A DNA stretch of 43,509 nucleotides from a virus. Below, piece by piece: positions 1,407-35,837 of the stretch. The translations under genes were made by a program, and so were the position numbers. The DNA is taken from the IMG/VR virus record IMGVR_UViG_3300029286_001647. The stretch is one strand, 5' to 3'. Each line of letters starts with the position of its first letter. The stretch's first letter is position 1. Below the pieces are notes generated by a model. It made no database searches and had not been told where the DNA came from. It saw only the letters and a list, made by a program, of their open reading frames with translations.

Positions 1407-1417
1407 ATTATACCACA
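1407..1417 (-). promoter_or_regulatory. extended -10-like 'TGGTATAAT' upstream of 1123-1308
   Basis: reverse complement of 'attataccaca'. Confidence 0.25.
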
Positions 1418-2259
1418 ATAAGTTGTGGCTGAAAACGCTTCACTAATTTCTCGTCTAATTCCGCCAAAAAATCTTTACCATACTTTCCGTTTTCTAGGCA
1501 CAGAATGAGGTTTTCTGGTATGTCTTTTTCGTACTCATCGCAATGTGATGCTGCTGACATTGCGATAGCTGCGACTGTATCGACATCTCCGCCGAAATCA
1601 ATACAATTGTAAAGTAGTTCTTGCAATGATTCAGAAGTGACTACTGCCGTGACCGCAGCGTGTACGATGTCCATACCTTTTGACCCTACTTTGCCTTGCC
1701 ACAAATCAAGCCAAGGTCCAGAGGGACCATCTAGTGCCAGATAAACTTGGAGATCATCTTTTGTTCCAAGCTTATTGATGAAGTAGTGAGCCATCATCAT
1801 TGCAATGATTGCCGAGTTAATTCCGTTTTCTGTATTATGGGTGATAGCAGCCTGTATAGTACATAGTTTCTTGGCGGCATCAAGATCTTTGATAAAGCCA
1901 AGAGGCGCAGAGCGCATAGCTGCTCCACCTTTTTCGCTATCAGGCTTTATCTTTTTGAGGAACTCTTTACCAGATTTGATTTCCTGCAAGAAGGCATAAA
2001 AGCGATGAGCATATCCTGTTCTTTGATCTCTCTTAAAGACCTCAACAAACTTGTTGGCAATGATAAGTGGAGTCCACTCTTTCTCGTACAGCATGAGTTC
2101 AGCTATAGCGATACTCATTTGTGTATCGTCTGTATAACGTCCAGGCGCGCCTTTGTGTCTTGGATGATTTATATACATCTTGACTGTATTGAGGTCGAGA
2201 TTATCAGCGAACTCAAAGGCGCTTCCGTAGGCATCAGCTATTCCCATTTCAACTAACAT
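1408..2259 (-). CDS. ADP-ribosylglycohydrolase (ARH/DraG-like)
   Basis: motifs 'ADAYGSAFEF', 'GRYTDDTQMS', 'GGDVDTVAAIAMS' match ARH family signatures; start set at internal ATG (MLVEMGIAD) just past the upstream stop, with an AAGGAAAA ribosome-binding site. Confidence 0.85.
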   Translation of the reverse strand: MLVEMGIADAYGSAFEFADNLDLNTVKMYINHPRHKGAPGRYTDDTQMSIAIAELMLYEKEWTPLIIANKFVEVFKRDQRTGYAHRFYAFLQEIKSGKEFLKKIKPDSEKGGAAMRSAPLGFIKDLDAAKKLCTIQAAITHNTENGINSAIIAMMMAHYFINKLGTKDDLQVYLALDGPSGPWLDLWQGKVGSKGMDIVHAAVTAVVTSESLQELLYNCIDFGGDVDTVAAIAMSAASHCDEYEKDIPENLILCLENGKYGKDFLAELDEKLVKRFQPQLIVV

Positions 2260-2794
2260 TGTTTTCCTTTTCCCAAAAATCAGCACATTTACCACTACAG
2301 AACTTAGCTTCTGGATTTTTATCAATAGTTATATAAGAATCGTTTGCAGTTATCATTTGATTACAATAAGCACAAAAAGAATTACTCTCTTCCCATCTAT
2401 TCGCATGATCTGGGCAACAGAAAACAGCATCAGGATACTTGTTATCAGACGAAAATTGTATTCCTTTTATTACGCAATGACAATAAGAGCATCTTGTTTC
2501 TTCATAGTCTTTTTCATCTATAGTAAGAGTCAGAAGTTCTTTACGAAGCTTTTCTTCTGTCTTCTCTTTTGACTTTATAGCATTTACGAGTTCTGTCACA
2601 TCATCAAAATTAACTTCTACCTCATCAAACTTAGTGATCTCGTCTGCTCTCTGGCTATCTCCCAGAAAAGAGTAGTTCTTATTGATATACAATCCAGCAT
2701 CAGGGACAAATATTTCCTGAATAAGATAAGAACTTCCGTGGATCGCGTCCATAAAACTTTCAGATACTCTTGTCACATATCTTTTCCCCTTCAT
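2249..2794 (-). CDS. protein with two C-terminal FCS/TRASH-type zinc fingers
   Basis: 'CSYCHC...FCCPDH' and 'CAYC...KFCSGKC' match the C-x2-C...F-C-S-x2-C pattern. Confidence 0.5.
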   Translation of the reverse strand: MKGKRYVTRVSESFMDAIHGSSYLIQEIFVPDAGLYINKNYSFLGDSQRADEITKFDEVEVNFDDVTELVNAIKSKEKTEEKLRKELLTLTIDEKDYEETRCSYCHCVIKGIQFSSDNKYPDAVFCCPDHANRWEESNSFCAYCNQMITANDSYITIDKNPEAKFCSGKCADFWEKENNVS

Positions 2795-2796
2795 TT

Positions 2797-3276
2797 TTAT
2801 TCCCCCCTCTTTAAAGCATTTTTGTAATCTTCTTCTGAAATCTCATATTCGGTACAAACTACGCACCATATATTTTTATAGCAATCGAATTCCCCTATCG
2901 CAACGAAATGCTCTTTCTTAATCTTAATAGGAATAGTAATCATCTTACTTAGCCATGCCACAGTGGTAGGTCTATCGAGTCCAGAGTACAAATACTCTGA
3001 TATCAACATCTCATTGCCATTCTCCTCCAAAAAACAATGGCATACCCCGCCATTTAGAGCCTGCCCGTCTGCAAGACAATCTATATGATTAGCCCTAAAC
3101 AACGTCGATAATGGAGTATTAGTGCCAGGCGTTAAAAGGGTATCCATGTACGGAGAAAGCAGAACATCTTTGTGATAGTCACTTACTCTGACTGCTTTAT
3201 AAAACGTCCGCGGTTGACCATCAGTCCAGGCATCGAGATACTCTTGAGTTTTTTTAGCATCTACGATTGTGCACAT
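2797..3276 (-). CDS. MC-family paralog 1 (159 aa, starts MCTIVD)
   Basis: shares N-term 'MCT(I/V)..(K/R)T..(F/Y)L..W.DG..KTF(Y/W)K.V', 'SPY', 'G..H..L' and 'IPI.IKK..F..IG.F' with 4 other ORFs. Confidence 0.6.
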   Translation of the reverse strand: MCTIVDAKKTQEYLDAWTDGQPRTFYKAVRVSDYHKDVLLSPYMDTLLTPGTNTPLSTLFRANHIDCLADGQALNGGVCHCFLEENGNEMLISEYLYSGLDRPTTVAWLSKMITIPIKIKKEHFVAIGEFDCYKNIWCVVCTEYEISEEDYKNALKRGE

Positions 3277-3743
3277 AGGTATTTTCCCTTTACTGCGTCT
3301 TCATAGACTTGTGGGTCGATTGTATATTTCAGAGAGACAACACAAGCTGTTTTCATGTCATCTCCGAAAATGCCTATTCCTCTGAAAGCATCTTTCTTAA
3401 TCTGAATTGGGATCATAGATAAGTCTTTTCTCTCACTCATAGTACGACAATAAACTTTATGAAACTCTTTTGCCTCTGATTCCAATAATAGGCAATGGAA
3501 GAATCCGCAACGAACATCTTCCATTGCGAAAACATCTTCCATCCCTTTAAATCTACCTACAGCATTATCCCCTTTATCGATAGGTATTTCATAATAAGGA
3601 GACATCATTTTAACTGGAACAGGATAGCTTCTTGACACAACGCAAGGTCCAGCGACAACCAGTTTCCAGAAGGTTTTGACTTCTCCGTCTTTCCACTCAG
3701 CGAGAAAACTTTCTGTTCTCGCTCTGTCTACGATTGTACACAT
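3261..3743 (-). CDS. MC-family paralog 2 (160 aa)
   Basis: paralogous to 2797-3276; 16-nt start/stop overlap 'ATGTGCACAATCGTAG' conserved with the next junction. Confidence 0.6.
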   Translation of the reverse strand: MCTIVDRARTESFLAEWKDGEVKTFWKLVVAGPCVVSRSYPVPVKMMSPYYEIPIDKGDNAVGRFKGMEDVFAMEDVRCGFFHCLLLESEAKEFHKVYCRTMSERKDLSMIPIQIKKDAFRGIGIFGDDMKTACVVSLKYTIDPQVYEDAVKGKYLCAQS

Positions 3744-4207
3744 TTGTATTCACCCTCCAAAGCTTTTTGATAGACTTCTGGATCTACGGAGTAGCAAGTA
3801 GATATAACACAATCAACGCCTTCATGATCCGGGAATTCACCTATGCCCAAGAAATCTTTTTTCTTTATCTTGATTGGTATGATAGATATGCTTTTATCCA
3901 TGCTAGGCAAATAGCTACGAAGTTTTTGCGCACTAGCATTATCTAGCAAAGCGTGATAAACACCACCATATATATCAGTTTTGTCGCGCCAGTCTTGGAA
4001 ACATCTAATATATCTAAAACTTTCCCCTTTAGCTATATATGCACTTTGGTATAAAGAAACTAATCCGCTTGGTGAAACCTTTCCAGTATCTTGATTTAAC
4101 GTCTGATATAGACTGAAACAAACCGCTTTGTAGAAGGTCTTTTCTTCTTCGTCTCCCCATTCAGCCAGAAACTTTTCAGTTTTTTCTTTATTGAATACGG
4201 TACACAT
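3728..4207 (-). CDS. MC-family paralog 3 (159 aa)
   Basis: paralogous; C-terminus 'EGEYKCVQS' resembles 'KGKYLCAQS' of paralog 2. Confidence 0.6.
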   Translation of the reverse strand: MCTVFNKEKTEKFLAEWGDEEEKTFYKAVCFSLYQTLNQDTGKVSPSGLVSLYQSAYIAKGESFRYIRCFQDWRDKTDIYGGVYHALLDNASAQKLRSYLPSMDKSISIIPIKIKKKDFLGIGEFPDHEGVDCVISTCYSVDPEVYQKALEGEYKCVQS

Positions 4208-6242: not shown

Positions 6243-6606
6243 GTTCTGCTATTTGTTTCTTAAGATCAGCTATGATACGATTTGCCCTTGCAAGCTCCTC
6301 ATTAGTCTTAGCAAGGCTCTGCATCTCTCCCATAATCTTCTCTTGGAAGTCTTTGCTTCTGGCTTCTTCTGAGAAGTTAAACAAGTGCATCATATTTGCT
6401 TCTCTAAAGATATACTCTGTAAGGACAAACAAATCATCATCATCTCTAAGACCAGTACCGCATTCACTGATTGCAGTTATAATGCTTAGATTCATCGGCT
6501 TCTCTTCTTTTAAAGCGCGAGAATAAGCTTTTGCAGCCGCCTTCATCGGTGTATCTGCGATAATTGCTGTCTCAAAATCACCACTTATAATATAATACTT
6601 TGGCAT
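6202..6606 (-). CDS. hypothetical protein with C-terminal coiled coil (134 aa)
   Basis: ORF track. Confidence 0.5.
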   Translation of the reverse strand: MPKYYIISGDFETAIIADTPMKAAAKAYSRALKEEKPMNLSIITAISECGTGLRDDDDLFVLTEYIFREANMMHLFNFSEEARSKDFQEKIMGEMQSLAKTNEELARANRIIADLKKQIAELEKNKEENDDVSG

Positions 6607-7118
6607 TACTCCTCCTTAACAGACTTTTTTAGCTCATTCAGACGCGCTATAATCTTATCTTGAACCCCTTCGAATGGCACTTTATTGTCAAACGTTGGTA
6701 TTGTATATTTCGTGACAACGGCAGAATTAGGTTCTCCTCCCTTATAATCAAACCTGCCCAAAGCGACGAAATCCTTTTTATCTACCTCGACTTCTACAAT
6801 ATAGCACTCGTATGAACAATGTATTAATTGGGCGCAATTGTTTTGAAGTAGAGCAATAGCCCCGCCTTCTATGATCGAGTCTACGCTTAAAAACAGATGA
6901 GCGCCCCTTGTCACTTCTTTAAGCTCAATCTCTAGATGAGAAAGAGTGTTATCTATTCTACTAGAATAGTTTTCACCGAGATTAATCTCCAATCCCATAT
7001 ATGGAGAAAGATATGCCTCAGGATAGCATCTAACAACCTTAAGAAATGTCTTTTTCTCGCCGTCTTTCCAATCTGCAAGAAACTTGCCAGTTGCCTCTAT
7101 ATCCGGTATTAAGCACAT
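6606..7118 (-). CDS. MC-family paralog 4 (170 aa, MCLIPDIEATGKFLADWKDGEKKTF)
   Basis: same motif set as the 2797-4207 trio. Confidence 0.6.
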   Translation of the reverse strand: MCLIPDIEATGKFLADWKDGEKKTFLKVVRCYPEAYLSPYMGLEINLGENYSSRIDNTLSHLEIELKEVTRGAHLFLSVDSIIEGGAIALLQNNCAQLIHCSYECYIVEVEVDKKDFVALGRFDYKGGEPNSAVVTKYTIPTFDNKVPFEGVQDKIIARLNELKKSVKEE

Positions 7119-7629
7119 TTTTGTTCTCCTTTACTGAGGATTTCATTCGTCTCGTCTACTATTGGTATTACAGATAGACCGGCTTCAAGAGAGGGAATGT
7201 TATATTCCATTACTACGGCACAAGTGACTTCCCCATTAGCAGTTTCAAACCTGCCTACCGCAAATATGTCTTTCTTCTCGACTTCTACAGGGATAATATA
7301 CATATTGTCCATCCCATTAAACGTGTCCTTATCTATATGATCTACTTTATTGTCTCTAGCGTGAATCAAAAGATCTTTCTGTAAAGAATCTTTTTCCAAA
7401 AACAAATGGCATCCATACATTACATATTGACCACGAATCTCGTAATCTTCTAGGTAATTGATAGACCTGGCTGACCTATTAATGCCTTTATGGACCCACA
7501 ACCTATAAATGGTGTTATGAATGTGCCATCCTTTTGTCTATTAACAAGCTTCCAGAAGGTTTTGACTTCCCCATCTTTCCACTCTGCGATGAACTTTTTA
7601 GTCGCTTCTAGATCAAGTGTTAAGCACAT
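7109..7629 (-). pseudogene. MC-family paralog 5, frameshifted
   Basis: N-terminus 'MCLTLDLEATKKFIAEWKDGEVKTFWKLV' (ATG ~7629) runs 59 codons to a stop at ~7452; the family 'GCHLFLEKD...IPVEVEKKDIFAVGRF' continues in another frame (7109-7501). Confidence 0.45.
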
Positions 7630-8303: not shown

Positions 8304-8611
8304 TCGTCTTTTTCCTCATCTTTCGGATCGAAAACTTTGTCTTTCATCCAGCCATTTTTCTTGTCATGAGCGTCTTTGCATTGCTTATAGAACTTCTCAT
8401 TGTTAAGTATCATATACAGTAGTGGCAGGATAAGAGGCCATAGGATAATCCATATAATAATAGCCTCTGGTTCGGAAAGAGTACTCTTATTAGGGTCTTG
8501 CAAAGCAAGAAGCTTCTGCATCGCGTCTGGATGCTCCAACATATATTTCTGGAATAAGTCTATACTGGCAATGCCAATAAGAGCGTAGAAAAGTAGGATA
8601 TAAAAAAACAT
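8300..8611 (-). CDS. small membrane protein (103 aa)
   Basis: two hydrophobic segments; ATGA overlap with neighbours. Confidence 0.45.
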   Translation of the reverse strand: MFFYILLFYALIGIASIDLFQKYMLEHPDAMQKLLALQDPNKSTLSEPEAIIIWIILWPLILPLLYMILNNEKFYKQCKDAHDKKNGWMKDKVFDPKDEEKDE

Positions 8612-9207
8612 TACTTAGATTCTCCAAAATGAAAATTGAGACCTTGCATGAACCCACCGAGTCTCAAGAACATAAACACTTTTGCGTCCATCAGGTCTTT
8701 ATCTTTACCGGCGACAAGACCGTAGATGTCATTGGCTGTAGGAATGAATACCTCTATATCCTCCGAAGACTCATTCAGAGAGGTTGAGATTTCTCCCTCT
8801 ACTTCTGCCGCGATAACTACTGCGCATTCGTCTGTGATGCCGGGAGAATTGAACATAGTAGGAGACTCCCACAAAATCTTTGTGATTTCGAGTCCTGTTT
8901 CTTCTTTGATCTCTCTTCGTGCGGCAGACTCAGGAGTTTCATCACCATCAATCAAACCCGCTGGGAACTCTATGACGTAGTCATTGACAGGGACGCGAAA
9001 TTGGCGGATCAGAACTGGTTTGCCTTTGAGAAAAGGAATAACAACGACAGCATCAGGCTTCGTCCTTTTGGCGGGATCTTCGAGACGTGAGGCGAAAATC
9101 CAATTCCCGCGCTTACCGTTATGTTCGTAAGATGACATAAACAGATTGAGGAATCTGTAGGCAGACAACTTCAACGTTTCAATAACTTTCATTTTGCGTC
9201 CTTTCAA
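8611..9207 (-). CDS. Nudix hydrolase, probable ADP-ribose pyrophosphatase
   Basis: perfect Nudix box 'GLIDGDETPESAARREIKEETGL' (G-x5-E-x7-REUxEExGU). Confidence 0.8.
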   Translation of the reverse strand: MKGRKMKVIETLKLSAYRFLNLFMSSYEHNGKRGNWIFASRLEDPAKRTKPDAVVVIPFLKGKPVLIRQFRVPVNDYVIEFPAGLIDGDETPESAARREIKEETGLEITKILWESPTMFNSPGITDECAVVIAAEVEGEISTSLNESSEDIEVFIPTANDIYGLVAGKDKDLMDAKVFMFLRLGGFMQGLNFHFGESK

Positions 9208-19083: not shown

Positions 19084-19429
19084 TACAAAACTTTATTTCC
19101 CTCAAATCTCTTTTGAATACAGCAAACGAAGCTACTGCACCTATAAAAACATACTTTTTCTGTTTCTTCGCCGCTTTCCCCAAACGTAAGAAGTTTCTGC
19201 CTCTCACCTTATAATATGTTTTGTTTCTGATAAAAGAGCAAAGCGTAGAGAAGCTATCACTGTGAGTGGTGCATATCATAAGACCTAATCTAAGAAGTTC
19301 TCTGCAAACGAATATATCTCTATGATCCTTATTTAGAGAATTGCGCTGTGCATTCTTGATAAGATCTTTCATCTTTCGGCGGAAATTGTTAGGATTGTTA
19401 TTGTGCATCATTCGTACCGGCGAAGCCAA
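19040..19429 (-). CDS. hypothetical basic protein (129 aa)
   Basis: ORF track. Confidence 0.4.
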   Translation of the reverse strand: MASPVRMMHNNNPNNFRRKMKDLIKNAQRNSLNKDHRDIFVCRELLRLGLMICTTHSDSFSTLCSFIRNKTYYKVRGRNFLRLGKAAKKQKKYVFIGAVASFAVFKRDLREIKFCNEFVLLGGDANVTS

Positions 19430-19953
19430 CCTTTCTTATCTATATGCCTCACAGATTCCACTCCACGAAACTCCATTAAGTATCTTACCAGATGTTTCAA
19501 ACACTTATCATTTTGCTGTCCCTCAAAACGAGGCACAAAAATGGCATTTCCATAGTTCCTACGGCAATTACTGATCTTATCTTCAACAATAAGCATCTTC
19601 TCAATGTCATAACCCTTTTTCTTCACTTTATTTAGAGGCTTAATAAAGTCAGGGTCCATTGTCTCAGGGTCAAATACTCTTACACATCTATCGAATGCCC
19701 AAACGAATTCAAGTGATTCTTTACCGCCAGGGAAGATGTTTTTAACGATTTCATCGACGTAATCAGGAGAACCGGCTGACCACACGGCTGTCCTGAATGA
19801 CTCACAAACGGTTTTAAGGAAATCGTCTAGTCCGGGGCGCTTAAAGGTATAATAATTGCCTACAATGAAGTCTGGAACGTGTATAAGGGGTTTTCGAGAC
19901 GTGGAGTGGATGAGTGTTTCATCTAAATCAAAAATAACCAAAATCTCATCCAC
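19408..19953 (-). CDS. NIF/FCP1-like HAD phosphatase
   Basis: 'VIFDLDETLIHS' (DxDxT) matches the NLI-interacting-factor-like layout. Confidence 0.7.
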   Translation of the reverse strand: MDEILVIFDLDETLIHSTSRKPLIHVPDFIVGNYYTFKRPGLDDFLKTVCESFRTAVWSAGSPDYVDEIVKNIFPGGKESLEFVWAFDRCVRVFDPETMDPDFIKPLNKVKKKGYDIEKMLIVEDKISNCRRNYGNAIFVPRFEGQQNDKCLKHLVRYLMEFRGVESVRHIDKKGWLRRYE

Positions 19954-20774: not shown

Positions 20775-21977
20775 TTACTCTCCCTTAATGACAGCGACAG
20801 GCATAAGCTTGTACAAAATCTTGACAAGATCAGACTGAGAGGTCATAACTTTTTCTATATCCTTGTAAGCGTCTGGAGACTCATCCAAGGTCGCATGAGT
20901 AGGAGTAAACTCAATTCCTTTCATCGACTTCTTGAAAGCTTCCATACCGATAGAAGACTTCGCTTGAGTCCTAGACATAGCGCGTCCAGCTCCGTGAGAG
21001 CAGGAATGGAATGACTTAGGTTGTCCCAATCCCTGAACAATGTAAGACGCAGTTCCCATAGAGCCAGGAATAATCCCAGTTGTCTGATGGCTTGCGAATG
21101 TAGCGCCCTTACGGTGGACAATACAAGTCTCTTTGAAATGGCTTTCAAGAGCTGCATAATTGTGATGGATGTTGATCATCTTTTTCGCAGGAGGCATAGG
21201 AAATCCAAGAGCCTCAAAAACCTCAATAGAGATTTCCATCATGCAGTACCTGTTCATCTCCGCGAAATCCAGACAGAAGTTCATCGCGTCGAAATACTCT
21301 TTCCCCTCATTAGAAGAGAACGGGAGGAAAGACAAAGCCTTCATCTCGACTGGCAAGTTGGTATGCCAAGCCTGATTTCTCTCCCATGATATATTGGAAT
21401 AGGTATCGCAAACAGTCTTGCCGATGTTGCGAGAACCAGAATGGATCATAATCCAAGTATTGCCTTGTTCATCAGTGAGCAAGTTCCAGAAATGATTTCC
21501 GCCGCCGAGAGTGGCAATCTGTTCTCTAACGCATTGGTCGATGTTTACAGGCGCAGTCTTCCAGAAAGACTTACCATCATATTTTCCATGAAGCTTCTCA
21601 ACGCATTTTTCTGACGAAGTAGTTGTCTTCTTAGGATCTCTATGTGCCATGCCGACAGGCATAAGGAACTTGATACGCTTCATAATGTCAGCGATCTTTT
21701 CCTTAACGCTTGTCCAAGTAAGACCAGTATTGAGAGCAACCATTCCGCAGCCGATGTCAGATCCAACAGCCCACGGAGAAATCGCGTCATCCAATGCCCA
21801 AACGCAACCCACCGGAACGCCGAATCCCTGATGGCAATCTGGCATTAGCGCAACGTGATGATAAACAGCAGGATGATTCGCCGCCATAAGCGCCTGTTCA
21901 AGAGCGCCAGGCTCAAGATTATCGCACCACGAAAAGATAGGTACTTTCTGCTTCTCTTTGTCAAAAATTACGTTCAT
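20775..21977 (-). CDS. rtcB: RNA ligase RtcB
   Basis: 'MPDCHQGFGVPVG', 'GSDIGCGM', 'SCSHGAGRAMSR' match RtcB motifs. Confidence 0.9.
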   Translation of the reverse strand: MNVIFDKEKQKVPIFSWCDNLEPGALEQALMAANHPAVYHHVALMPDCHQGFGVPVGCVWALDDAISPWAVGSDIGCGMVALNTGLTWTSVKEKIADIMKRIKFLMPVGMAHRDPKKTTTSSEKCVEKLHGKYDGKSFWKTAPVNIDQCVREQIATLGGGNHFWNLLTDEQGNTWIMIHSGSRNIGKTVCDTYSNISWERNQAWHTNLPVEMKALSFLPFSSNEGKEYFDAMNFCLDFAEMNRYCMMEISIEVFEALGFPMPPAKKMINIHHNYAALESHFKETCIVHRKGATFASHQTTGIIPGSMGTASYIVQGLGQPKSFHSCSHGAGRAMSRTQAKSSIGMEAFKKSMKGIEFTPTHATLDESPDAYKDIEKVMTSQSDLVKILYKLMPVAVIKGE

Positions 21978-25712: not shown

Positions 25713-27023
25713 TTATCCCACAATCTTTCCCTTTTCAACATTTACTTTTTCTCCCTCCGCCAAGCCAAGAACTTTACTATCTAAAATGGCAAAAGGATAA
25801 CTCCCATCGGCATCTTTCCAACGCTGTACCAATACCGCTCCGATATGCACTATCCATCCAACTTTTTCTGAGCATACAGAGCATACAGATGAATTAGAAA
25901 TCTCTACTATGGAACATTGACCAGTGACAGACGAAGAGCATAATTCTCCCATGTTCTTCAATACGGATTGATCTCCAGTTGATGATTGACTGGATTGATA
26001 TCCAGTTGAGGATTGACTGGATTGATCTCCAGTTGATGATTGACTGGATCGATGTCCAGTTGAGGATTGACTGGATCGATATCCAGTTGAGGATTGACTG
26101 GATTGATCTCCAGTTGATGATTGACTGGATCGATGTCCAGTTGAGGATTGACTGGATCGCTCTCCAGTCGATGATTGACTGGATTGATATCCAGTTGATG
26201 ATTGACTGGATTGATATCCAGTTGAGGATTGACTGGATTGATCTCCAGTTGATGATTGACTGGATCGCTCTCCATTCGATGATTGACTGGATTGATATCC
26301 AGTTGATGATTGACTGGATCGATATCCAGTTGAGGATTGACTGGATTGATGTCCAGTTGAGGATTGACTGGATTGATCTCCATTCGATGATTGACTGGAT
26401 TGATATCCAGTTGATGATTGACTGGATCGATATCCAGTTGAGGATTGACTGGATTGATCTCCAGTTGATGATTGACTGGATCGATGTCCAGTTGAGGATT
26501 GACTGGATCGCTCTCCAGTCGATGATTGACTGGATCGATCTCCAGTTGTATACCCATCGTTATTCTTCTTAGAGTCTTCGACAATCCATGCAATTCTTCC
26601 AGATTGTGTAAAATACATAGCAGACGACAATGACCCATTATGAACAACTTCAACAGACTTAGCTTTCACTTTTCCTCCATCGATAGAGACTACATCAGAT
26701 GGAGTAGCAGCAAGCACCAAGAACGGCAAAGTTGCATCTACATCCTTGCCTTCCCCGAGAAACATCCCCCATGGCCAAGCGTGAATCCCATTTCCGCATT
26801 TTGGTTTAGGATCCCAATCTGGACATTCTACAATACCAGACTCAGGCCAAGTAATTACAGGAGCAGTAGTCCCATCTTCCTTATCCATACCGCCTGTAGT
26901 ACGATTTCTCTCGATTTGCTTAACGAGCAAAACCTTTGTTCCATCGTGCGTCCACTGATGGATTGGGATATCAAACACTTTTTCCACATCTTTTACTGGT
27001 TCTTTAATGTCGTTTTCAGCCAT
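25713..27023 (-). CDS. Ser-rich repeat protein (436 aa): N-terminal domain, ~22 copies of the 9-aa repeat 'SSQSSTG(D/Y/H/E)(Q/R)', C-terminal domain
   Basis: encoded by the 27-bp tandem DNA repeat. Confidence 0.65.
   Translation of the reverse strand: MAENDIKEPVKDVEKVFDIPIHQWTHDGTKVLLVKQIERNRTTGGMDKEDGTTAPVITWPESGIVECPDWDPKPKCGNGIHAWPWGMFLGEGKDVDATLPFLVLAATPSDVVSIDGGKVKAKSVEVVHNGSLSSAMYFTQSGRIAWIVEDSKKNNDGYTTGDRSSQSSTGERSSQSSTGHRSSQSSTGDQSSQSSTGYRSSQSSTGYQSSQSSNGDQSSQSSTGHQSSQSSTGYRSSQSSTGYQSSQSSNGERSSQSSTGDQSSQSSTGYQSSQSSTGYQSSQSSTGERSSQSSTGHRSSQSSTGDQSSQSSTGYRSSQSSTGHRSSQSSTGDQSSQSSTGYQSSQSSTGDQSVLKNMGELCSSSVTGQCSIVEISNSSVCSVCSEKVGWIVHIGAVLVQRWKDADGSYPFAILDSKVLGLAEGEKVNVEKGKIVG
25964..26550. 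repeat. tandem 27-bp repeat, ~21-22 copies (plus-strand unit 'ccagttgatgattgactggattgatat')
   Basis: visible directly; patterned variants at 3-4 positions per unit; all six frames open. Confidence 0.9.
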
Positions 27024-28129: not shown

Positions 28130-28873
28130 TCACTCAAATAAATCGATATGGTTCTGTCTGTGGTTCTCTATCCGCTGCTTCGCCATTTCGTAGTACTTAG
28201 GCTCTTTCTCCACAAGCAAATAATCCAATCCCTTAATCTCACAAGCAATACCAGTGGTTGCAGATCCGCACATCGGGTCTAATACAAATCCTTTATCGGG
28301 ACAACCTATATCCAACATACGAGTGATTAGCCATAAAGGTTTCTGATGTGGATGACCGACTCTCTCACTTCCATGAGTAATAGAACTTTTCCAGCAGTTC
28401 CTTAATTGAGTTCCACCATTATGCAACTTAGACTTTTCATAATCAAAGAAGTAGTCTTTAGTCTTTGCTGCCCAAATGATATGTTCACAGCTTTCTATTA
28501 GTCCCTGTCTCGTCACGCTAAAGAAAGCATTATCCTTAAACCATACAATAGAATTGACGATCCAGAAGCCAAAATGCCTTTTAAGCAAGTCGCCAAGGAA
28601 ATAGATGTTATGGAGCGATCCAAAGGCGAAAATGCTTCCTGTGTCCTTCAACAAAGGCACAAGGGTTTCTATATTGGTCTTGTAGGAATCATATTGCTCT
28701 TGAACGGAATTGAATGTATCCCAATCCTCAGCAGACTTCTTCCACTTCTTTTCCTTATGTTCTATTTTGGAATTGCCTATTCCGTATGGAGGATCCCAAA
28801 GAACAAAATCTACTGTATTAGGCTGAACGTGATTGCTCAGGTTCGCCATATCATCATTTATAATTCCGCCCAT
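28130..28873 (-). CDS. DNA methyltransferase, beta-class N6-adenine/N4-cytosine (N6_N4_Mtase family)
   Basis: motif IV 'DPPYG' before motif I 'LDPMCGSATTGIA'; 'HPHQKP'. Confidence 0.85.
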   Translation of the reverse strand: MGGIINDDMANLSNHVQPNTVDFVLWDPPYGIGNSKIEHKEKKWKKSAEDWDTFNSVQEQYDSYKTNIETLVPLLKDTGSIFAFGSLHNIYFLGDLLKRHFGFWIVNSIVWFKDNAFFSVTRQGLIESCEHIIWAAKTKDYFFDYEKSKLHNGGTQLRNCWKSSITHGSERVGHPHQKPLWLITRMLDIGCPDKGFVLDPMCGSATTGIACEIKGLDYLLVEKEPKYYEMAKQRIENHRQNHIDLFE

Positions 28874-28883
28874 ATAACTCCTA

Positions 28884-29624
28884 TTAGCTTATTTCTACAT
28901 CATCAATATAATGATCGAAGCTTTCTTTGTTTATCTCAAACCCACAAGGTCTTCTATTGAGACGCTGAGACACAATCGCTGTCGTAAAGTTCCCTAAGAA
29001 GAAATCACAAACAACATCTTCTTCTTGAGAAGAATAGCTTATGATCTTCTCAATCAATGCTTCTGGAAGTTTGTTCACGTTCTTTACTGCGCCAGGGCAA
29101 TACTCTTTGTTGATCGTCCAAACATCTTCCATATCCTTATAAACCATAGAACGACCTTTATTAGTTCTCGCATCGTCTTGGAACCTACAATTCCTATTGA
29201 AATACGGTTTGGCTTTCTTGCTCTTTTTGCAATACAGAATATGGTAATGTGAGCTGACAAACTTCTTTTTCGTGTAAACTCCAAAGTTGTATTTCCATAT
29301 AATGTGATTGATTACAACAAATCCTGCTTCATTCAGAGCGTTTAGGACATGGTTAAGGTTTGTCCATCCTGAGAAGACATAGAAGCTTCCATTAGGCTTT
29401 AGAACGCGATATGCTTCTTTCATCCATTCTGTAGTGAACCTGTAATAATCTGGAGGCGCTTCTACATATCCAGATATGATGTTATTCGCCTTACGATTAT
29501 AATGTTGCTTATCGAAAGATGTTTCTGATAGACCGAAAGGAGGATCGCAGATCATAAGGTCTACAGATCCATCAGCAATATATTTTTTCGCGCCAGAAAT
29601 GCAATCTTCATTGTATATATTCAT
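28884..29624 (-). CDS. DNA methyltransferase, beta-class N6A/N4C, with degenerate motif I
   Basis: 'MICDPPFG' then 'VVCDFFLGNFTTAIV'. Confidence 0.75.
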   Translation of the reverse strand: MNIYNEDCISGAKKYIADGSVDLMICDPPFGLSETSFDKQHYNRKANNIISGYVEAPPDYYRFTTEWMKEAYRVLKPNGSFYVFSGWTNLNHVLNALNEAGFVVINHIIWKYNFGVYTKKKFVSSHYHILYCKKSKKAKPYFNRNCRFQDDARTNKGRSMVYKDMEDVWTINKEYCPGAVKNVNKLPEALIEKIISYSSQEEDVVCDFFLGNFTTAIVSQRLNRRPCGFEINKESFDHYIDDVEIS

Positions 29625-30118
29625 TTCTTATTGGCGCGCTCCTTAAGGTCTTCTCTGACTTTCGTAATTGCTTCGCCCAGCCAGTTAGTCCCTTGCCAAT
29701 TCTTCCTGTCGTAAATGCGAGGATCATCCTTTGCCATATGTATTCCCCATATAGCATCCGTAGGAGATGCTTCCACTAACAAAGTCCCATCCGTCTCGAC
29801 AAGGCTTTTCATCATATGATCATTTTGAGTGAACTTCGCCATATTGCCTTGATATACAATGTCTTTGGCTACTGCTTGCCATCTCTCTACATCAAAATCT
29901 TTTACCTGCTTACCCAAAGCTTTCTGCTCTCTGGGGTCAGATGTTGACATAATTCGCTCAAGGATTTCATAATCTGCAAACATGACAGCTTTATTTGCCA
30001 TCATCCACTGTTCCGCTGAATTATACTTAACCCCATCAATTACGAAATCGCATCTTGCCCATTGGGAAAAAGGACCACCATAGAAAAACGTAAACTTATC
30101 ATACTTCTCGAAATCCAT
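29621..30118 (-). CDS. NADAR (YbiA/DUF1768) domain protein
   Basis: 'FFYGGPFSQWARCDFVIDGVKYNSAEQWMMANKAVMF' and 'EASPTDAIWGIH' parallel E. coli YbiA (recalled). Confidence 0.75.
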   Translation of the reverse strand: MDFEKYDKFTFFYGGPFSQWARCDFVIDGVKYNSAEQWMMANKAVMFADYEILERIMSTSDPREQKALGKQVKDFDVERWQAVAKDIVYQGNMAKFTQNDHMMKSLVETDGTLLVEASPTDAIWGIHMAKDDPRIYDRKNWQGTNWLGEAITKVREDLKERANKK

Positions 30119-30126
30119 ACTACCTC

Positions 30127-30519
30127 CTATTTCATTGACTTATAAGACTTGAGCATTAGCGCAACTCCCGCCGCAAGCATAATGATCATCAAAATAAAAT
30201 GCGTTGTCTTAATGTTCATGAAGAATTGAATTCTGCTGATAATCTCAATCCCGATAATCCCAAGACCACACCACATCAAGACCCACGCCCAAGTCCAACG
30301 TGCATTATAGAACAAAGCCACTACACCTGCGAAGAAGGGAACAAAAATAATGCCCATAGAAGTGGTATGTCCAGACCCACGAAAACAACCGCTGACCCAT
30401 CCATATCCTCCCGTAGTCACTCGAACAGAATCGAAGAAGAAATAGACTGCCAGCGCAGCCAGAAGGAAACCGATCAGATAAGTTCCAACTCCACCACTTG
30501 TTCCACCGCTACCACGCAT
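30127..30519 (-). CDS. membrane protein (130 aa, 4 TM)
   Basis: hydrophobic throughout. Confidence 0.5.
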   Translation of the reverse strand: MRGSGGTSGGVGTYLIGFLLAALAVYFFFDSVRVTTGGYGWVSGCFRGSGHTTSMGIIFVPFFAGVVALFYNARWTWAWVLMWCGLGIIGIEIISRIQFFMNIKTTHFILMIIMLAAGVALMLKSYKSMK

Positions 30520-30947
30520 TTCTTGTTTTCCTTTTCTTTTGATGGCCAGAAGTATTCAAGATTAGGACCGATGTCCCAATGAAATTGTCCGTAATGGACA
30601 GGATCTTTTCTCAACAGATTACTTTGATGACTTCGATGATAACGATTATCACCTAACCACCAAGGAATAGATACCTTGCCTAAATTAGTTCTCATTTCTT
30701 CAAACTTCGGCAGCAAGCTATCATTGTATCCCCTGCTAATCCATTCACGGCACATATAGATACCATAAACGCAAAGCAGAGGTTCAAAGCCTTTCCATTG
30801 TTTGACAGCAGGATGATTGCGCCAACCTCCGTCATTCAGCAACGTATTGAGTATCTGCCAAGCTTCGACTCGCTGTTTGCCGCATCGCCGATAATCGAGG
30901 CACTTAGCAGTTTCTCTGAACGACATATATGGTAAAAAGGTTTGCAT
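30474..30947 (-). CDS. hypothetical protein (157 aa)
   Basis: ORF track. Confidence 0.5.
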   Translation of the reverse strand: MQTFLPYMSFRETAKCLDYRRCGKQRVEAWQILNTLLNDGGWRNHPAVKQWKGFEPLLCVYGIYMCREWISRGYNDSLLPKFEEMRTNLGKVSIPWWLGDNRYHRSHQSNLLRKDPVHYGQFHWDIGPNLEYFWPSKEKENKKCVVAVEQVVELELI

Positions 30948-30995: not shown

Positions 30996-31976
30996 TCATT
31001 CACCTTTCCGTTTTTCGCGGAAATCGCAAACCCAACATTTATGTGCATAAGAGAATCGTATATTCCCATTCACTCCATCTTCTGTACGATAATCACCGGC
31101 AGATGCGTGATACTTGCACTCTTGCCATAAATGACAAGATTCACTTTTGCAGATTGGAACGCAGCCAGGAACAAATCCATTTGTCACTGCCTTTTGATTC
31201 AAAGAGATATAAGCGTCAACAGGTTCGTAATAAGGCTCTCCGCGGGAGACAAATGAATCTACTCTCGAAAATATGTCTTCTACAATCTGAACTTTGTTAT
31301 TCGATTTATGCCATTCACTCTCCCCAAAATTAGATGGAGGAACAGTATCCAACAGGATAGCACAATGAGTTTTGGCTTCCCTCATCATCTTCTTGTCATT
31401 GACAACTACGAGATTTGCCTGATTTCTCTCCAAAGACTTAAATCCAATCTCAAGAAGCTCATCAAAAGTTCTATTGATTTCGAACTTGAAAGCGACAATA
31501 AAGAAATTAGGGTCTTTATTCCATTCACGGAAATGAGTGATGATCTTTGGATTGAGAACAATCTTTTGCCTCATATACTCAATCAAAGCTTCTGGATCAT
31601 CAGATTTCAGCTTGATACCTTCACCTTCGTCTTTTTTGAAACCGAAGTCAGCAACTGCCATAGCGTGAACAATGGCATCAGCTTTCGGAACAAGAAGCTC
31701 TAGCATTTCAAAAGCGTCTTGTGCAGAATAGACTGTATAGGTCTTAACCTCTCCTCTATAGTAGTTTCTATTCGCAATAGATTCTACAATTGTCCTGCCA
31801 TATTCTATATCCTTAGACCCTGTCGTTTGTACGAAATCAACATCCCATCCCTTTTCGGAGAAGTATGCGGCTGCAATTGCTCCAAGAGCGCCAGACGATA
31901 CGTTTGTGATCAAACGAAAATCGTCTACCTTCTCTTTTGTCCCGCCTGAAGTCACGATTACTTTTTTGTTAGGCAT
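30996..31976 (-). CDS. coaB: phosphopantothenate-cysteine ligase (CoaB domain) with Cys-rich C-terminal extension
   Basis: 'KKVIVTSGGTKEKVDDFRLITNVSSGALGAIAA' matches CoaB/DFP; start set at ATG 31976 with a GGAGAG ribosome-binding site. Confidence 0.8.
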   Translation of the reverse strand: MPNKKVIVTSGGTKEKVDDFRLITNVSSGALGAIAAAYFSEKGWDVDFVQTTGSKDIEYGRTIVESIANRNYYRGEVKTYTVYSAQDAFEMLELLVPKADAIVHAMAVADFGFKKDEGEGIKLKSDDPEALIEYMRQKIVLNPKIITHFREWNKDPNFFIVAFKFEINRTFDELLEIGFKSLERNQANLVVVNDKKMMREAKTHCAILLDTVPPSNFGESEWHKSNNKVQIVEDIFSRVDSFVSRGEPYYEPVDAYISLNQKAVTNGFVPGCVPICKSESCHLWQECKYHASAGDYRTEDGVNGNIRFSYAHKCWVCDFREKRKGE

Positions 31977-31977
31977 T

Positions 31978-32235
31978 TTATCTCTCCGATTCTGGAATCT
32001 TAGGTCTTTCAACCACTTTGCAACCTAGCGCCGTAGCAATTGCAGAAACTATTTCTGAACATTTCTCCAGATGTATTTCTTTGTCGAATTGAGTCTCAAG
32101 GAAATACGGTGTAATCGCATTGATTACATTTCCGTTTAGGTATAGATTAACATGGACGAGTTGCATACGTCCACCTACAACAAGCTTTCTATATTCTTTT
32201 TCGACTATCAAAACATTCTCATCGCTCATAGTCAT
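31978..32235 (-). CDS. hypothetical protein (85 aa)
   Basis: ORF track. Confidence 0.4.
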   Translation of the reverse strand: MTMSDENVLIVEKEYRKLVVGGRMQLVHVNLYLNGNVINAITPYFLETQFDKEIHLEKCSEIVSAIATALGCKVVERPKIPESER

Positions 32236-32794
32236 CTCCTTGCCATTTTAAGGCATTGTTAAGGCGTATAGTAGGATCTAAAAGGTTTTCTGGCTGAGGT
32301 TGATCCAATTCCCATCCTCCCGCCGAGATCTTACCATGTCTGTACAAATGCAAATGCAACATTGATCGTGGTCTACCTTTGTCTTTCTTCAACACTCTCT
32401 TAACATATCCAACCAGATCGCCAGCTAAAACAGGTTCGCCTATTTTAATTGTACGAGATACGTCAATCTCTCCATAAGCGACAACTCCGCTTTCGCCAGC
32501 TATAAGAACAGCTTCCGTATCTTCCCACCAATCGCAACCGGCTTTCTTTCCAGTCCAAGCTTCGATAAGAACAGGAATCCCATCCTCAACTGCGTAAACA
32601 GGAGTTCCTTCAGGGCAATATAAGTCTACTCCTCCGTGAACATCATGTTTTCTCTTCGCACCAAAAGCGCCACAATGTTCTCCAAAAGGGATTTCTACTT
32701 GTTTAGTGATATCGATCTTACGAAATGATTCAGAATCATCCGTTAAATCAAGCACTTCCATTCTAAGAGGGAATTTCCAAAGCGGCATCTTCAT
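32219..32794 (-). CDS. M23/LytM peptidoglycan endopeptidase
   Basis: 'HGGVDLYCPEGTPVYAVEDG' (HxxxD) and 'MLHLHLY' (HxH). Confidence 0.75.
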   Translation of the reverse strand: MKMPLWKFPLRMEVLDLTDDSESFRKIDITKQVEIPFGEHCGAFGAKRKHDVHGGVDLYCPEGTPVYAVEDGIPVLIEAWTGKKAGCDWWEDTEAVLIAGESGVVAYGEIDVSRTIKIGEPVLAGDLVGYVKRVLKKDKGRPRSMLHLHLYRHGKISAGGWELDQPQPENLLDPTIRLNNALKWQGDDYER

Positions 32795-33362
32795 CCTCCA
32801 ATAACTTATTTACAAACTCAACTACTTTTCTTGGTTCTTCTGCTTTACCCTTACCCACATCTCCACAAGCCAGTCTCCCCACTACTGGCTCTATAAAATG
32901 GATAACAGGTCGATGTATATGATTGAGTATATCGGTAAAAGCGAATAACAAAGTCCTCATATTTTTGACATTGATGGGATGCTCATACATCCTCGTGTTG
33001 CAAGCAGGGCAAATAACAATCCTGCACTTATCTAATGGCAAAGCCATAAAAGTAGTAGAAAGCAAATCATCTGCAATCCCATTGGCAAACTTAGCCATAA
33101 TGTTTACAGTCGCAGGATAAACGAGAAATACATCCGCCCAAGTCGCAAGTTCAATATGTTTGATCGAAGTACGTCTTTCCCACATACTTGTATGTACTTC
33201 TCCTCCAGAGACGCTTTCGATTGTCAATGGAGTAATAAACTTTGTGGCATTCTCTGTCATAATAGTCTTAACTTTATGACCAGTCGCCAGTAAGCCAGAG
33301 ATAACGTCACAAGCCTTATAGGCTGCAATCCCGCCAGTAATACCAAGTAGTATGTTTGCCAT
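32763..33362 (-). CDS. coaC: phosphopantothenoylcysteine decarboxylase (CoaC flavoprotein)
   Basis: 'MANILLGITGGIAAYK', 'FITPLTIESVSG', 'ICPACN', 'LACGDVGKGK' parallel E. coli Dfp N-domain; AGGAG ribosome-binding site. Confidence 0.85.
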   Translation of the reverse strand: MANILLGITGGIAAYKACDVISGLLATGHKVKTIMTENATKFITPLTIESVSGGEVHTSMWERRTSIKHIELATWADVFLVYPATVNIMAKFANGIADDLLSTTFMALPLDKCRIVICPACNTRMYEHPINVKNMRTLLFAFTDILNHIHRPVIHFIEPVVGRLACGDVGKGKAEEPRKVVEFVNKLLEDEDAALEIPS

Positions 33363-33366
33363 GTTC

Positions 33367-34422
33367 TTACTCCTGTGATGGAGCGACTGCCCATCCGATT
33401 TCAGGCTCAACAGATACGCTATCTCTTGAGGAGACTCCAAGTAGCCCAGCATAGAAATCATACTTGTATTCTGTCCCAAGGTATTCCCATATAAACGGGA
33501 CTTTGCTGACAGATGATGGAAGCCTATCTGAAGTCAATCCTCCAAATAAATCTGCTGTAATAACATCAATATAAGGATTTCTTGTGAAAGGATCTCCATC
33601 ATTATATTGATTCTCAAGATACGGGAAGAGATTTACCATCCACCCTTTAATATATGGACCTCCGCTCTGGTTCTCTTTATTATAGGCTCTGCTCCAGAAA
33701 GCAGAATTAGCATTCCCTTTCTTAGCCTCGATAAACTCGTCCAAAATCTCCAGCACGGACTTAGTCCACCACCCAAGACCGTATTGTTCCCATTGAGCGA
33801 CTTTCTCTTTCATCTTCTCCCAATCGCCCAATGTCCCGCAGATATAGATGTTTGGAATACCGCACATTGTACACACTCTATATTCAAAATATGCTTTCAT
33901 TGCATCCATCAATACGATCTCACTTGCTGCTTTCTCTACGTTGCCAGTTGTAGAGAAGTCAGCTACGATAAGGCTGTGAGTTTGTTCACCGATATGTTTC
34001 TTAATTTCGGCGGAAAAAAGAGCAAAGTCTTTCTCCCAATCATTATCAGGACTTCCTTTAACAAGGCTATCGTCGCGTACTCTGATTAAAAGCTTACCTT
34101 CGTGAGAAACAAACTTGCTTCTTAGATCTTCTGCATTCATATTGATATGATTAGCAAGACCCTGAGTTAGAGTAATCCACATAACATCAGGCGTGATCCA
34201 CAGGTTATGATGATGATCGAAAGCATATTCAACAGCAGACATAAGGCAATGAAAAGGAGCAGCATTGATGACTTCTACGTTCTTAGAGCAAGCCTCTGGA
34301 CTCACTCCAGAAAGCTTCTTGAAGAAGCTTCCCAGAGCCATACTGCCCTGAGTAGATACTTTCATCTCTGCAACGTTATTCCCCTGGACTTTAGTTGTTT
34401 CCATCATCCCATTGAATCTCAT
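33367..34422 (-). CDS. hypothetical protein (351 aa)
   Basis: ORF track; no family recognised. Confidence 0.55.
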   Translation of the reverse strand: MRFNGMMETTKVQGNNVAEMKVSTQGSMALGSFFKKLSGVSPEACSKNVEVINAAPFHCLMSAVEYAFDHHHNLWITPDVMWITLTQGLANHINMNAEDLRSKFVSHEGKLLIRVRDDSLVKGSPDNDWEKDFALFSAEIKKHIGEQTHSLIVADFSTTGNVEKAASEIVLMDAMKAYFEYRVCTMCGIPNIYICGTLGDWEKMKEKVAQWEQYGLGWWTKSVLEILDEFIEAKKGNANSAFWSRAYNKENQSGGPYIKGWMVNLFPYLENQYNDGDPFTRNPYIDVITADLFGGLTSDRLPSSVSKVPFIWEYLGTEYKYDFYAGLLGVSSRDSVSVEPEIGWAVAPSQE

Positions 34423-35738: not shown

Positions 35739-35837
35739 TGCAGTGAACCTTTCTGTATCATCCAGTAGAGAGTAAAGGGACAATCCGTTATCCCTTTACC
35801 CTCTCTGAATGAAACCCTAACAACGAAACGATTGTGC

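Follow-up and report, generated by a model that had tools for sequence, protein, structure and literature searches.

The window analysed here is a stretch of viral DNA of 43,509 bp (IMG/VR record IMGVR_UViG_3300029286_001647) that makes up an entire metagenomic contig, identical pieces of which are found in three other samples (SRR8536341, SRR8536342 and JGI 3300029268). Near its beginning lies a gene for an ADP-ribosylglycohydrolase, here called ARH, which is the subject of this study. The gene, whose product has 283 amino acids (aa), and the conserved segments of this product are listed by nucleotide (nt) position in the window.

1408-2259, minus strand: ADP-ribosylglycohydrolase of the ARH/DraG superfamily, 283 aa (PF03747, AlphaFold2 model, Foldseek matches to ARH3, start codon and Shine-Dalgarno sequence)
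2209-2220, minus strand: AFEF segment with the invariant Glu16, aligned with the glutamate of 'SFYE' in ARH3
2113-2133, minus strand: metal-site motif I, T43-D44-D45-T46 (TDDTQMS), aligned with 'TDD' of ARH3 in invariant columns
1831-1845, minus strand: conserved ITHNT segment with the T140-H141 'TH' motif, from alignments (TH motif described in PMC9503650)
1561-1593, minus strand: metal-site motif II, G-G-D225-V-D227-T228 (GGDVDTVAAIA), aligned with 'GGDTDT' of ARH3

The longest open reading frame (ORF) at this position extends from 1408 to 2325 on the minus strand and has a TTG start. All homologues share the ATG at 2259 (MLxE...) as their start; this ATG is preceded by an AGGA Shine-Dalgarno sequence 5 nt upstream, and it falls in the last codons of the preceding gene, the stop of which is at 2249-2251. 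Because the starts of the homologues, the Shine-Dalgarno sequence and the overlap all favour this ATG, the gene was placed at 1408-2259, in agreement with the initial annotation. The TTG at 2325 was ruled out, since the homologues begin at the ATG and the extension would overlap the upstream gene. Promoter and terminator scans around the gene gave no more sites than shuffled sequence.

The product matched the Pfam family PF03747 (ADP_ribosyl_GH) with E 1.3e-29 and 104.2 bits, the cut-off being 26.2, with residues 7-233 aligned to positions 8-271 of the 287 in the model. It also matched PHROG 6572, 'ADP-ribosylglycohydrolase', with E 5e-22. Judged by these scores the profile match is far beyond chance, and it is near certain that the gene encodes an ADP-ribosyl hydrolase of the ARH/DraG superfamily. 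The two signatures on which the initial annotation had based the same assignment were recovered as residues 43-49 (TDDTQMS) and 223-233 (GGDVDTVAAIA).

In an alignment of 24 family members, E16, T43, D44, D45, T46, T140, H141, D225, D227 and T228 were invariant or at least 90% conserved, so that no catalytic Asp or Thr has been lost. The Mg2+ ligands of human ARH3, which we take to be Glu41, Thr76/Asp77/Asp78 and Asp314/Asp316/Thr317, align with the metal motifs of the window ARH, and T140-H141 pairs with the 'TH' of ARH3. An AlphaFold2 model built on the 24-member alignment was all-helical, with 16 helices (pLDDT 91, pTM 0.91). All 50 PDB matches listed by Foldseek for this model were ARH-fold proteins, the top ones being ARH3 with ADP-ribose bound (TM 0.72-0.75, 18-21% identity). 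As the metal ligands are conserved and an ARH fold is predicted, the assignment stands. The protein has an intact two-metal site and is apparently active, and it is predicted to be a catalytically competent, Mg2+/Mn2+-dependent ADP-ribosyl hydrolase.

Among solved structures the closest relative by sequence was human ARH3 (E 1e-10), with Tri1 at 1e-6, in a single-sequence search. A profile of the family matched ARH3 with 9e-19, DraG with 8e-17 and Tri1 with 6e-15. The top NCBIfam models were Tri1 NF041672, with 49.6 bits and a cut-off of 490, and DraG TIGR02662, with 42.9 and a cut-off of 337. Identity with either enzyme was dismissed on these scores, in the case of DraG also for want of a DraT partner and in that of Tri1 for want of an N-terminal plug and an adjacent toxin. 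The plug is considered absent because the first residue of the window ARH aligns at residue 76 of Tri1 (position 74 of the NCBIfam model). By sequence comparison the window ARH is thus placed, tentatively as regards ARH3, outside all characterised branches, in a distinct compact subfamily of about 280 aa.

A total of 1635 database proteins matched the ARH at E up to 1e-3, and the best matches other than itself were 50-56% identical. The cellular members come from Nostocales, Microcoleus, Leptolyngbya, Ktedonobacteria and other Chloroflexota, Planctomycetota, Armatimonadota and Woesearchaeota. IMG/VR scans with the single ARH sequence gave no match; a search with the family alignment, which was needed, found the subfamily in at least 50 IMG/VR loci, many of them on contigs of 200-580 kb. 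Only four records of deposited phages matched this branch, the best being Sinorhizobium phage Phosso with 34%. A rough neighbour-joining tree showed the cellular ARHs as a tight crown, with long branches leading to the IMG/VR copies. The window ARH groups there with P0030, P0003, P0011 and P0005, and both P0005 and P0011 were checked and found to lie on phage-like contigs.

More than 543 genomic loci matched the subfamily and 80 of these were read; the counts for cellular neighbourhoods refer to 82 loci read, 39 with Nudix next to ARH and 43 others. In the 39, all from Nostocales or a few other cyanobacteria, a Nudix gene directly precedes the ARH, and the Nudix of the Nostocales is 32% identical to a Nudix encoded in the window (8611-9207). 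The order HPPK-Nudix-ARH is kept in locus L001 (4811-7719) and 38 similar cyanobacterial loci, about half of which have Band7 next, and in loci of this type the ARH homologue begins 8 nt past the end of the Nudix gene. A universal two-gene module of Nudix and ARH was dismissed, as the pair is confined to cyanobacteria and absent from 50 viral loci (E 1e-5). Among the 99 neighbours in the 43 cellular loci outside the Nostocales recurrence of a family never went beyond local synteny; a single ARPP-1 gene and a single phosphoribosyltransferase turned up, and none of the 25 most frequent of 127 matched families is an ADP-ribosyltransferase (ART) family. The cellular homologues are thus conserved stand-alone genes with no adjoining transferase in the loci examined.

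A constant neighbour was not found in phages either, among 116 co-directional neighbours at 43 viral loci. TANGO2 and AAA were each seen three times, CREG/PNPOx and DFP twice, and NADAR, Nudix, Macro, 2H, DSPc, Metallophos and HD once each. Similarity searches placed a NADAR gene at a distance of 0.8 kb from the ARH in L038 and of 3.8 kb in L048. In L138 and L139 the order is NADAR, an ORF of 100 aa and ARH, amid RNA ligases, the NAD-dependent DNA ligase LigA and Thg1; the ARH of L138 (region 9277-10849) is 55% identical to that of the window. In L140 (8967-10846), which like L138 holds one of the closest relatives of the window ARH, the ARH start is overlapped by an inosine-uridine nucleoside hydrolase gene, with a family-B DNA polymerase coming next. 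All this makes the ARH a free-floating accessory gene that has only a loose tendency toward other ADP-ribose and ribose enzymes.

The most recurrent phage neighbour, present in several divergent huge-phage lineages, is a CoaB-like gene of about 430-480 aa, with an N-terminal CoaB/DFP-like domain and a conserved C-terminal half (motifs HFHCP, ECGSxECG and DNHGPN). It lies within about 4 kb of the ARH in seven IMG/VR loci, immediately downstream in four (L018, 10884-12212; L040, 6942-8219; L046, 10900-12339; L050, 10282-11619) and at most 2 kb downstream in L047 (11678-12967) and L048 (12565-13860). The DFP-like gene of the window itself is 29 kb from the ARH. The window encodes a CoaB-like ligase (30996-32012) and a CoaC-like flavoprotein (32763-33479) with an M23 peptidase between them, and both score well under the NCBIfam equivalog cut-offs, which indicates that they have diverged from housekeeping CoaBC.

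In the window the ARH is the final gene of a tightly packed string of five, preceded by a Cys-rich gene and by members of a small paralogous family.

2249-2794, minus strand: 181-aa protein with two C-terminal CxxC...FC(S/C)xxC zinc-ribbon-like repeats; its stop overlaps the ARH start
2797-4207, minus strand: three tandem overlapping paralogues of 159-160 aa each, a rare family with a predicted ART-like fold
6606-7629, minus strand: two further paralogues of the 160-aa family, the second (7109-7629) split by a frameshift

The three overlapping paralogues, the 181-aa gene and the ARH form an uninterrupted co-directional string from 4207 to 1408. The Cys-rich protein gave only a sub-threshold match to ApeA_NTD1. 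The fifth paralogue consists of two overlapping ORFs (7450-7629 and 7109-7501) with a one-base frameshift near 7450-7501, which could be due to a pseudogene, an assembly error or programmed shifting. The family is rare, with 59 relatives among 1.84 billion representative proteins, and Met1, Cys2 and His83 are invariant in it. The paralogues matched no Pfam family or solved structure by sequence, one of them searched against PHROG gave no match, and no sequence-level link to ARTs was found. The ART-fold proteins listed for them are ArtA (5.4), ParT (4.8) and MbcT (4.7), and then TreX, diphtheria toxin, PARPs, pertussis toxin, Tpt1, AcrIF11 and DarT; BC2332 belongs to the SCOP ADP-ribosylation superfamily. 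Neither an H-Y-E nor an R-S-E triad could be placed in the paralogues, and the family was not found near the ARH in other loci. From the predicted fold they are weak candidates for a writer partner of the ARH.

Four further genes of the window are related to NAD or ADP-ribose, and these are on the minus strand, as is the ARH.

8611-9207, minus strand: Nudix hydrolase, ADP-sugar/ADP-ribose pyrophosphatase-like (PF00293, E 4e-15)
13664-14071, minus strand: YpsA-type SLOG (YAcAr) domain protein (PF10686, E 7e-10)
29621-30118, minus strand: NADAR hydrolase of the Glu type (LVEASPTDAIWG, nt 29744-29779; PF08719, E 8e-50, 169.7 bits)
43075-43509, minus strand: divergent nicotinamidase-like protein of the isochorismatase fold, C-terminal 144 aa, cut by the contig end (family profile)

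The initial annotation had named three of these four. Its Nudix gene was confirmed: the product has a complete Nudix box (GX5EX7REUXEEXGU) at residues 84-106 (nt 8890-8958) followed by an SPGxTDE motif (nt 8827-8847), and among solved structures it is closest to human NUDT5 and to ADP-ribose pyrophosphatases of bacteria (E 1e-16 to 1e-12). The best NCBIfam models, NudE, YffH/AdpP and ADP-ribose diphosphatase, were all under their equivalog cut-offs. The SLOG gene, absent from that annotation, is the fifth ADP-ribose/NAD gene of the window; YpsA-type SLOG domains are counted in the NAD/ADP-ribose network by a survey of viral proteomes (PMC9503650).

The NADAR call likewise held. The best solved match is the active Phytophthora enzyme PnNADAR (8bau, E 4e-13), and 'LVEAS' of the window protein aligns with 'LYEAS' of PnNADAR and 'LVEHT' of Escherichia coli YbiA. 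The NADAR subfamilies are told apart by a Glu in the YbiA family, an Asp in DarG1 and a His in T4 gp30.3 (PMC11125620), and the window protein is of the YbiA type, as it combines a PF08719 match with Glu at the last-strand catalytic position. Homologues are present in 726 deposited phage records. At 28130-30947 the NADAR stands in a run of genes for DNA modification and repair, flanked by two adjacent N6/N4 DNA methyltransferases and an endonuclease-V-like pyrimidine-dimer glycosylase; a small membrane protein is encoded there too. This neighbourhood is a DNA-protection setting.

The isochorismatase/nicotinamidase-like hydrolase at the contig end fared less clearly. The ORF alone had no Pfam or NCBIfam match and only spurious PDB matches to armadillo repeats, while for a profile of its family the three top matches of known structure were all nicotinamidases: Mycobacterium tuberculosis PncA (5e-4), yeast Pnc1 (1e-3) and one more (3e-3). 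These align on the WPxHC motif, which binds metal, and on the catalytic Cys. The motifs LDSH, WPPHC, KG and SHCV are present in full-length homologues; the truncated ORF retains (P)HC and SHCV only, and several homologues are labelled 'nicotinamidase-related amidase' by JGI. The profile points weakly but consistently to a nicotinamidase-like protein. The gene lies directly upstream of a vWA/PP2C/kinase triad, its nearest member being the vWA gene. At 39732-43509 the vWA gene (42231-43112), the PP2C phosphatase (41063-41968) and the Ser/Thr kinase (39732-40751) stand in a row with an HNH endonuclease among them, and the order nicotinamidase-like to vWA is also seen in a 485-kb phage, LR745208 (L134).

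Measured from the ARH, the distances are 6 kb to the Nudix gene, 11 kb to the SLOG gene, 27 kb to the NADAR and 41 kb to the nicotinamidase-like gene, and unrelated genes lie in the intervals. Spread over 42 kb, the five ADP-ribose/NAD genes form no module.

The phage origin of the window was borne out by its relatives. A 758-aa protein at 14965-17241 has the shoulder and repeat domains of major vault protein (MVP; Pfam E 7e-28 and 1e-11), and in the phage collection its relatives, 43-44% identical, occur only in three metagenomic phage genomes of 462-735 kb; an IMG/VR scan with this single protein gave nothing. The nicotinamidase-like ORF has relatives of 37-51% identity in three metagenomic phage genomes of 462-595 kb and a 31% match on a 6.5-kb fecal phage contig, and a relative of the NADAR, 54% identical, is encoded by a phage of 595 kb. 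Because relatives of these three proteins sit in phages of 462-735 kb, the window is taken as a fragment of such a genome, and the element that carries the ARH is probably a huge phage of more than 200 kb. The called genes are all on the minus strand, densely packed and mostly orphans, with a GC content of about 40%. No virion gene was recognisable in the window, tRNA and Rfam scans of it gave nothing, and the first 6 kb, compared as DNA with deposited phages, gave no match.

At 11871-13101, 19408-19953 and 20775-21977 the window also encodes a CYTH protein, an RNase-T-type exonuclease, a phosphatase of the NIF/HAD type and an RtcB ligase of full length (Pfam E 2e-102). The CYTH protein passes the NCBIfam cut-off for class IV adenylate cyclase (66.2 vs 57.95), and the four are possibly an RNA-repair or nucleotide set. 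A glutamate-receptor-like channel, in which the solute-binding domain is split by a potassium-channel pore, adjoins a PspA/IM30 homologue at 34644-36518, which is unusual cargo for a phage. At 25713-27023 an ORF of 436 aa contains a 27-nt tandem repeat (21.6 copies at 25965-26548, 89% matches) that encodes SSQSSTGxx units, and it has weak, repeat-driven PHROG matches to tail fibres. From about 0.37-0.43 in the rest of the window the GC content goes up to 0.50 between 36 and 38 kb and to 0.47 between 38 and 40 kb; this block (36001-40000) may be a recent acquisition.

ADP-ribosylation and NAD+ depletion are central weapons in the conflict between phages and bacteria. The leading reading of the ARH, which we hold tentatively, is that of an anti-defence eraser of ADP-ribose marks imposed by the host. 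During infection the enzyme would cleave ADP-ribose conjugates by hydrolysis at the C1'' glycosidic bond, its targets being most likely protein marks or marks at phosphate ends of nucleic acids, and would release free ADP-ribose, which the NUDT5-like Nudix of the window could then split into AMP and ribose-5-phosphate. The ARH would be an independent, dispersed part of an NAD/ADP-ribose toolkit (ARH, NADAR, SLOG, Nudix and nicotinamidase-like) that clears from the macromolecules of phage and host the ADP-ribose which host systems attach. Within this toolkit it may complement the NADAR, which in published assays acts on guanine-linked ADP-ribose only. This complementarity is plausible because NADARs clear guanine-ADP-ribose only and ARH-like enzymes act on phosphate ends: phosphate-end ADP-ribose on RNA and DNA is taken off by the ARH-like enzymes SCO5809 and ARH3 and by macrodomains (PMC11833690). 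A phage NADAR defeats DarTG1 (PMC11825919), and from phyletic patterns it has been argued that viral ARH domains, there called ARG, prefer macromolecular adducts (PMC9503650). Also consistent with this reading, none of the scanned ORFs of the window has a Pfam ART, DraT or macro domain, and ADP-ribose enzymes sometimes adjoin the ARH in other phages, with NADAR within 0.3-4 kb in L138/L139, L038 and L048.

Several observations weigh against it. The initial annotation had proposed a layered anti-defence repertoire; the Nudix, NADAR and nicotinamidase-like calls on which this was built hold, but the genes are dispersed and unclustered and no constant partner of the ARH emerged. It is the vWA/PP2C/kinase triad, rather than NAD-salvage genes, that accompanies the nicotinamidase-like gene, and ARH neighbours in other phages are mostly metabolic or of unknown function. 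The sequence gives no substrate, as the profile matches ARH3, DraG and Tri1 about equally. A phage ARH with demonstrated counter-defence was not found in the literature searched, nor a PADLOC match for the ARH, and we know of no ADP-ribose-based phage defence that yields a product removable by an ARH. The product of DarT1 is handled by NADAR and that of DarT2 by macrodomains (PMC11825919, PMC11125620, PMC11833690). Finally, as the closest cellular relatives, 50-56% identical, are conserved across phyla and solitary or beside a Nudix gene, they look more like housekeeping enzymes on a conserved substrate than like participants in an arms race. As to the NAD+-restoring NARP pathways of phages, NARP1 genes are Adps and Namat, and NARP2 genes Nampt and Nmnat, and no NARP1, NARP2 or NARP3 domain was found in the window ORFs scanned with Pfam (43.5 kb of the phage genome). 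ADP-ribose is recycled by NARP1, nicotinamide is made into NAD+ by way of NMN in NARP2, and NARP3 consists of PnuC-like and NadR-like proteins (PMC13464706).

The housekeeping look of the relatives leads to another explanation, possible but rather doubtful, in which the ARH is an auxiliary metabolic gene borrowed from a cellular housekeeping family. It would hydrolyse soluble ADP-ribose derivatives such as O-acetyl-ADP-ribose, a reported reaction of ARH3 as cited in PMC9503650, or further ribosyl conjugates, and together with the Nudix would supply AMP and ribose-5-phosphate for phage nucleotides, or serve in the detoxification of reactive ADP-ribose. The cellular homologues in Cyanobacteria, Chloroflexota, Planctomycetota, Armatimonadota and archaea, which lack an adjoining transferase, would fit, as would the Nudix directly before the ARH in 39 of the 82 cellular loci, the nucleoside hydrolase overlapping the ARH start in L140, the CoaB-like gene of the seven IMG/VR loci, and phage neighbours that include dCTP deaminase, dihydroorotate dehydrogenase and PNPOx. 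In the window, however, 6 kb of unrelated genes separate ARH and Nudix, and the Nudix adjacency is confined to one cyanobacterial lineage, where it may be plain synteny. The phage copies also evolve fast, which is unusual for a pure housekeeping enzyme, and the published case for viral ARGs acting on macromolecular adducts (PMC9503650) speaks for a different substrate. Unlikely, too, is that the ARH reverses or limits ADP-ribosylation by writers of the phage itself, in the manner of DraG with DraT or of the ART-ARG pairs of Aeromonas phages. The candidate writers would be the five 160-aa paralogues, three of which share one overlapping co-directional string with the Cys-rich gene and the ARH and two of which lie at 6606-7629. 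The place of BC2332 in the SCOP ADP-ribosylation superfamily is in line with this, as are the ART-ARG pairs known in phages and the ARTs, often several, encoded by about 40% of jumbo phages (PMC9503650). Yet no H-Y-E or R-S-E motif could be placed, the invariant Cys2 and His83 are unusual for ARTs, the family is near the ARH in no other locus, and overlapping genes are the rule in the window, so that adjacency to the ARH is weak evidence. A fuller version, in which the phage has a self-contained system of ADP-ribosylation with the ARH as its eraser, the five upstream copies of an undescribed ART-fold family of about 160 aa (Cys2, His83) are writers aimed at host targets, and the ARH protects or resets phage components, is improbable.

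More improbable still is a role as an end-repair helper, by which the ARH would strip ADP-ribose caps from 5'- or 3'-phosphate ends of RNA or DNA and so let ligases, here RtcB, reseal molecules cut or capped by the host, while the NADAR clears base-linked ADP-ribose. The window does encode RtcB, the CYTH protein, the RNase-T-type exonuclease and the NIF phosphatase, the NADAR-ORF-ARH trio of L138 lies inside a cluster of RNA ligase, NAD-dependent DNA ligase and Thg1, and the phosphate-end activity of SCO5809 and ARH3, not shared by NADARs, is what such a role would require. Against this, the ARH is 18 kb from RtcB, a Tpt1/KptA-type end-ADP-ribosylating enzyme was not found, and the repair-cluster context is seen in one lineage only. 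An inactive ARH-fold protein with a structural or binding role is scarcely credible: nothing specific favours it beyond the fact that fold membership is in itself no proof of catalysis, and the metal ligands and TH motif are all conserved in the window ARH and its family.

Should the host-mark eraser reading be true, this branch of ARH would point to undescribed defence chemistry, because we know of no ADP-ribosylating defence that gives an ARH-reversible product. To our knowledge only macrodomain and NADAR erasers have so far been shown to rescue phages. If instead the ARH partners the ART-like paralogues, the two would be a new writer/eraser pair of a phage. The branch recurs in at least 50 viral contigs, mostly of giant phages, and with its alignment, model, conserved residues and loci it is a well-defined family ready for biochemistry.

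Compared with known enzymes, the window ARH has its best solved match, by sequence and by fold, in ARH3 (ADPRHL2/ADPRS), a vertebrate hydrolase of ADP-ribosylserine, poly(ADP-ribose) and O-acetyl-ADP-ribose (the last activity as cited in PMC9503650). The two share the all-helical fold, and the Glu and both Asp-rich metal motifs align residue for residue. The window protein is, however, only 18-21% identical and about 60 residues shorter (283 vs about 347 aa), and since the family profile scores DraG and Tri1 about equally, it is probably not a member of the ARH3 branch. DraG, the ADP-ribosyl-[dinitrogen reductase] hydrolase that acts in nitrogenase regulation, belongs to the same superfamily, has a similar length (about 290-300 aa) and is aligned by the profile over its full length (E 8e-17). 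According to Table 2 of PMC8120803, the DraG motif is E-D-D with Mn, opened by Glu28, which is the same type of metal site as in the window ARH. It differs in that no DraT lies beside the ARH, in the window or in the homologous loci examined. Tri1, the immunity protein to the ADP-ribosyltransferase toxin Tre1, has an ARH domain and is the best NCBIfam match (profile E 6e-15), but its toxin-plugging N-terminal extension is absent from the window ARH, and no toxin gene adjoins.

SCO5809 of Streptomyces coelicolor, an ARH3-like protein compared here by description only, resembles the window ARH as a stand-alone bacterial ARH with no known partner, and is active on RNA and DNA that carry ADP-ribose on their phosphate ends (PMC11833690). 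A functional parallel is AdfN, a phage NADAR that counters DarTG1, which like the window ARH would be an orphan eraser in a phage without the corresponding transferase, and the window carries a NADAR of its own. The folds of ARH and NADAR are unrelated, however, and the window NADAR has the Glu of YbiA, where T4 gp30.3 has a His and DarG1 an Asp. Of the classes in the toolkit only NADARs have an experimental anti-defence precedent (PMC11825919). A precedent in the same kind of genome is the survey of 21,191 viral proteomes by Iyer, Burroughs, Anantharaman and Aravind in 2022, in which 85% of jumbo phages hold at least one protein of the NAD/ADP-ribose network, about 5% an ARG (ARH) domain, 31% SLOG and 40% ARTs (PMC9503650). 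ARG/ARH, NADAR, SLOG and Nudix domains of jumbo phages are already catalogued there (PMC9503650), and a layered anti-defence role is a reasonable hypothesis that is already in print. The viral ARGs of that survey are the same domain in the same kind of genome (PMC9503650); the survey covers complete deposited genomes, the window is a metagenomic fragment, and its ARH mainly adds one example to the published giant-phage pattern.

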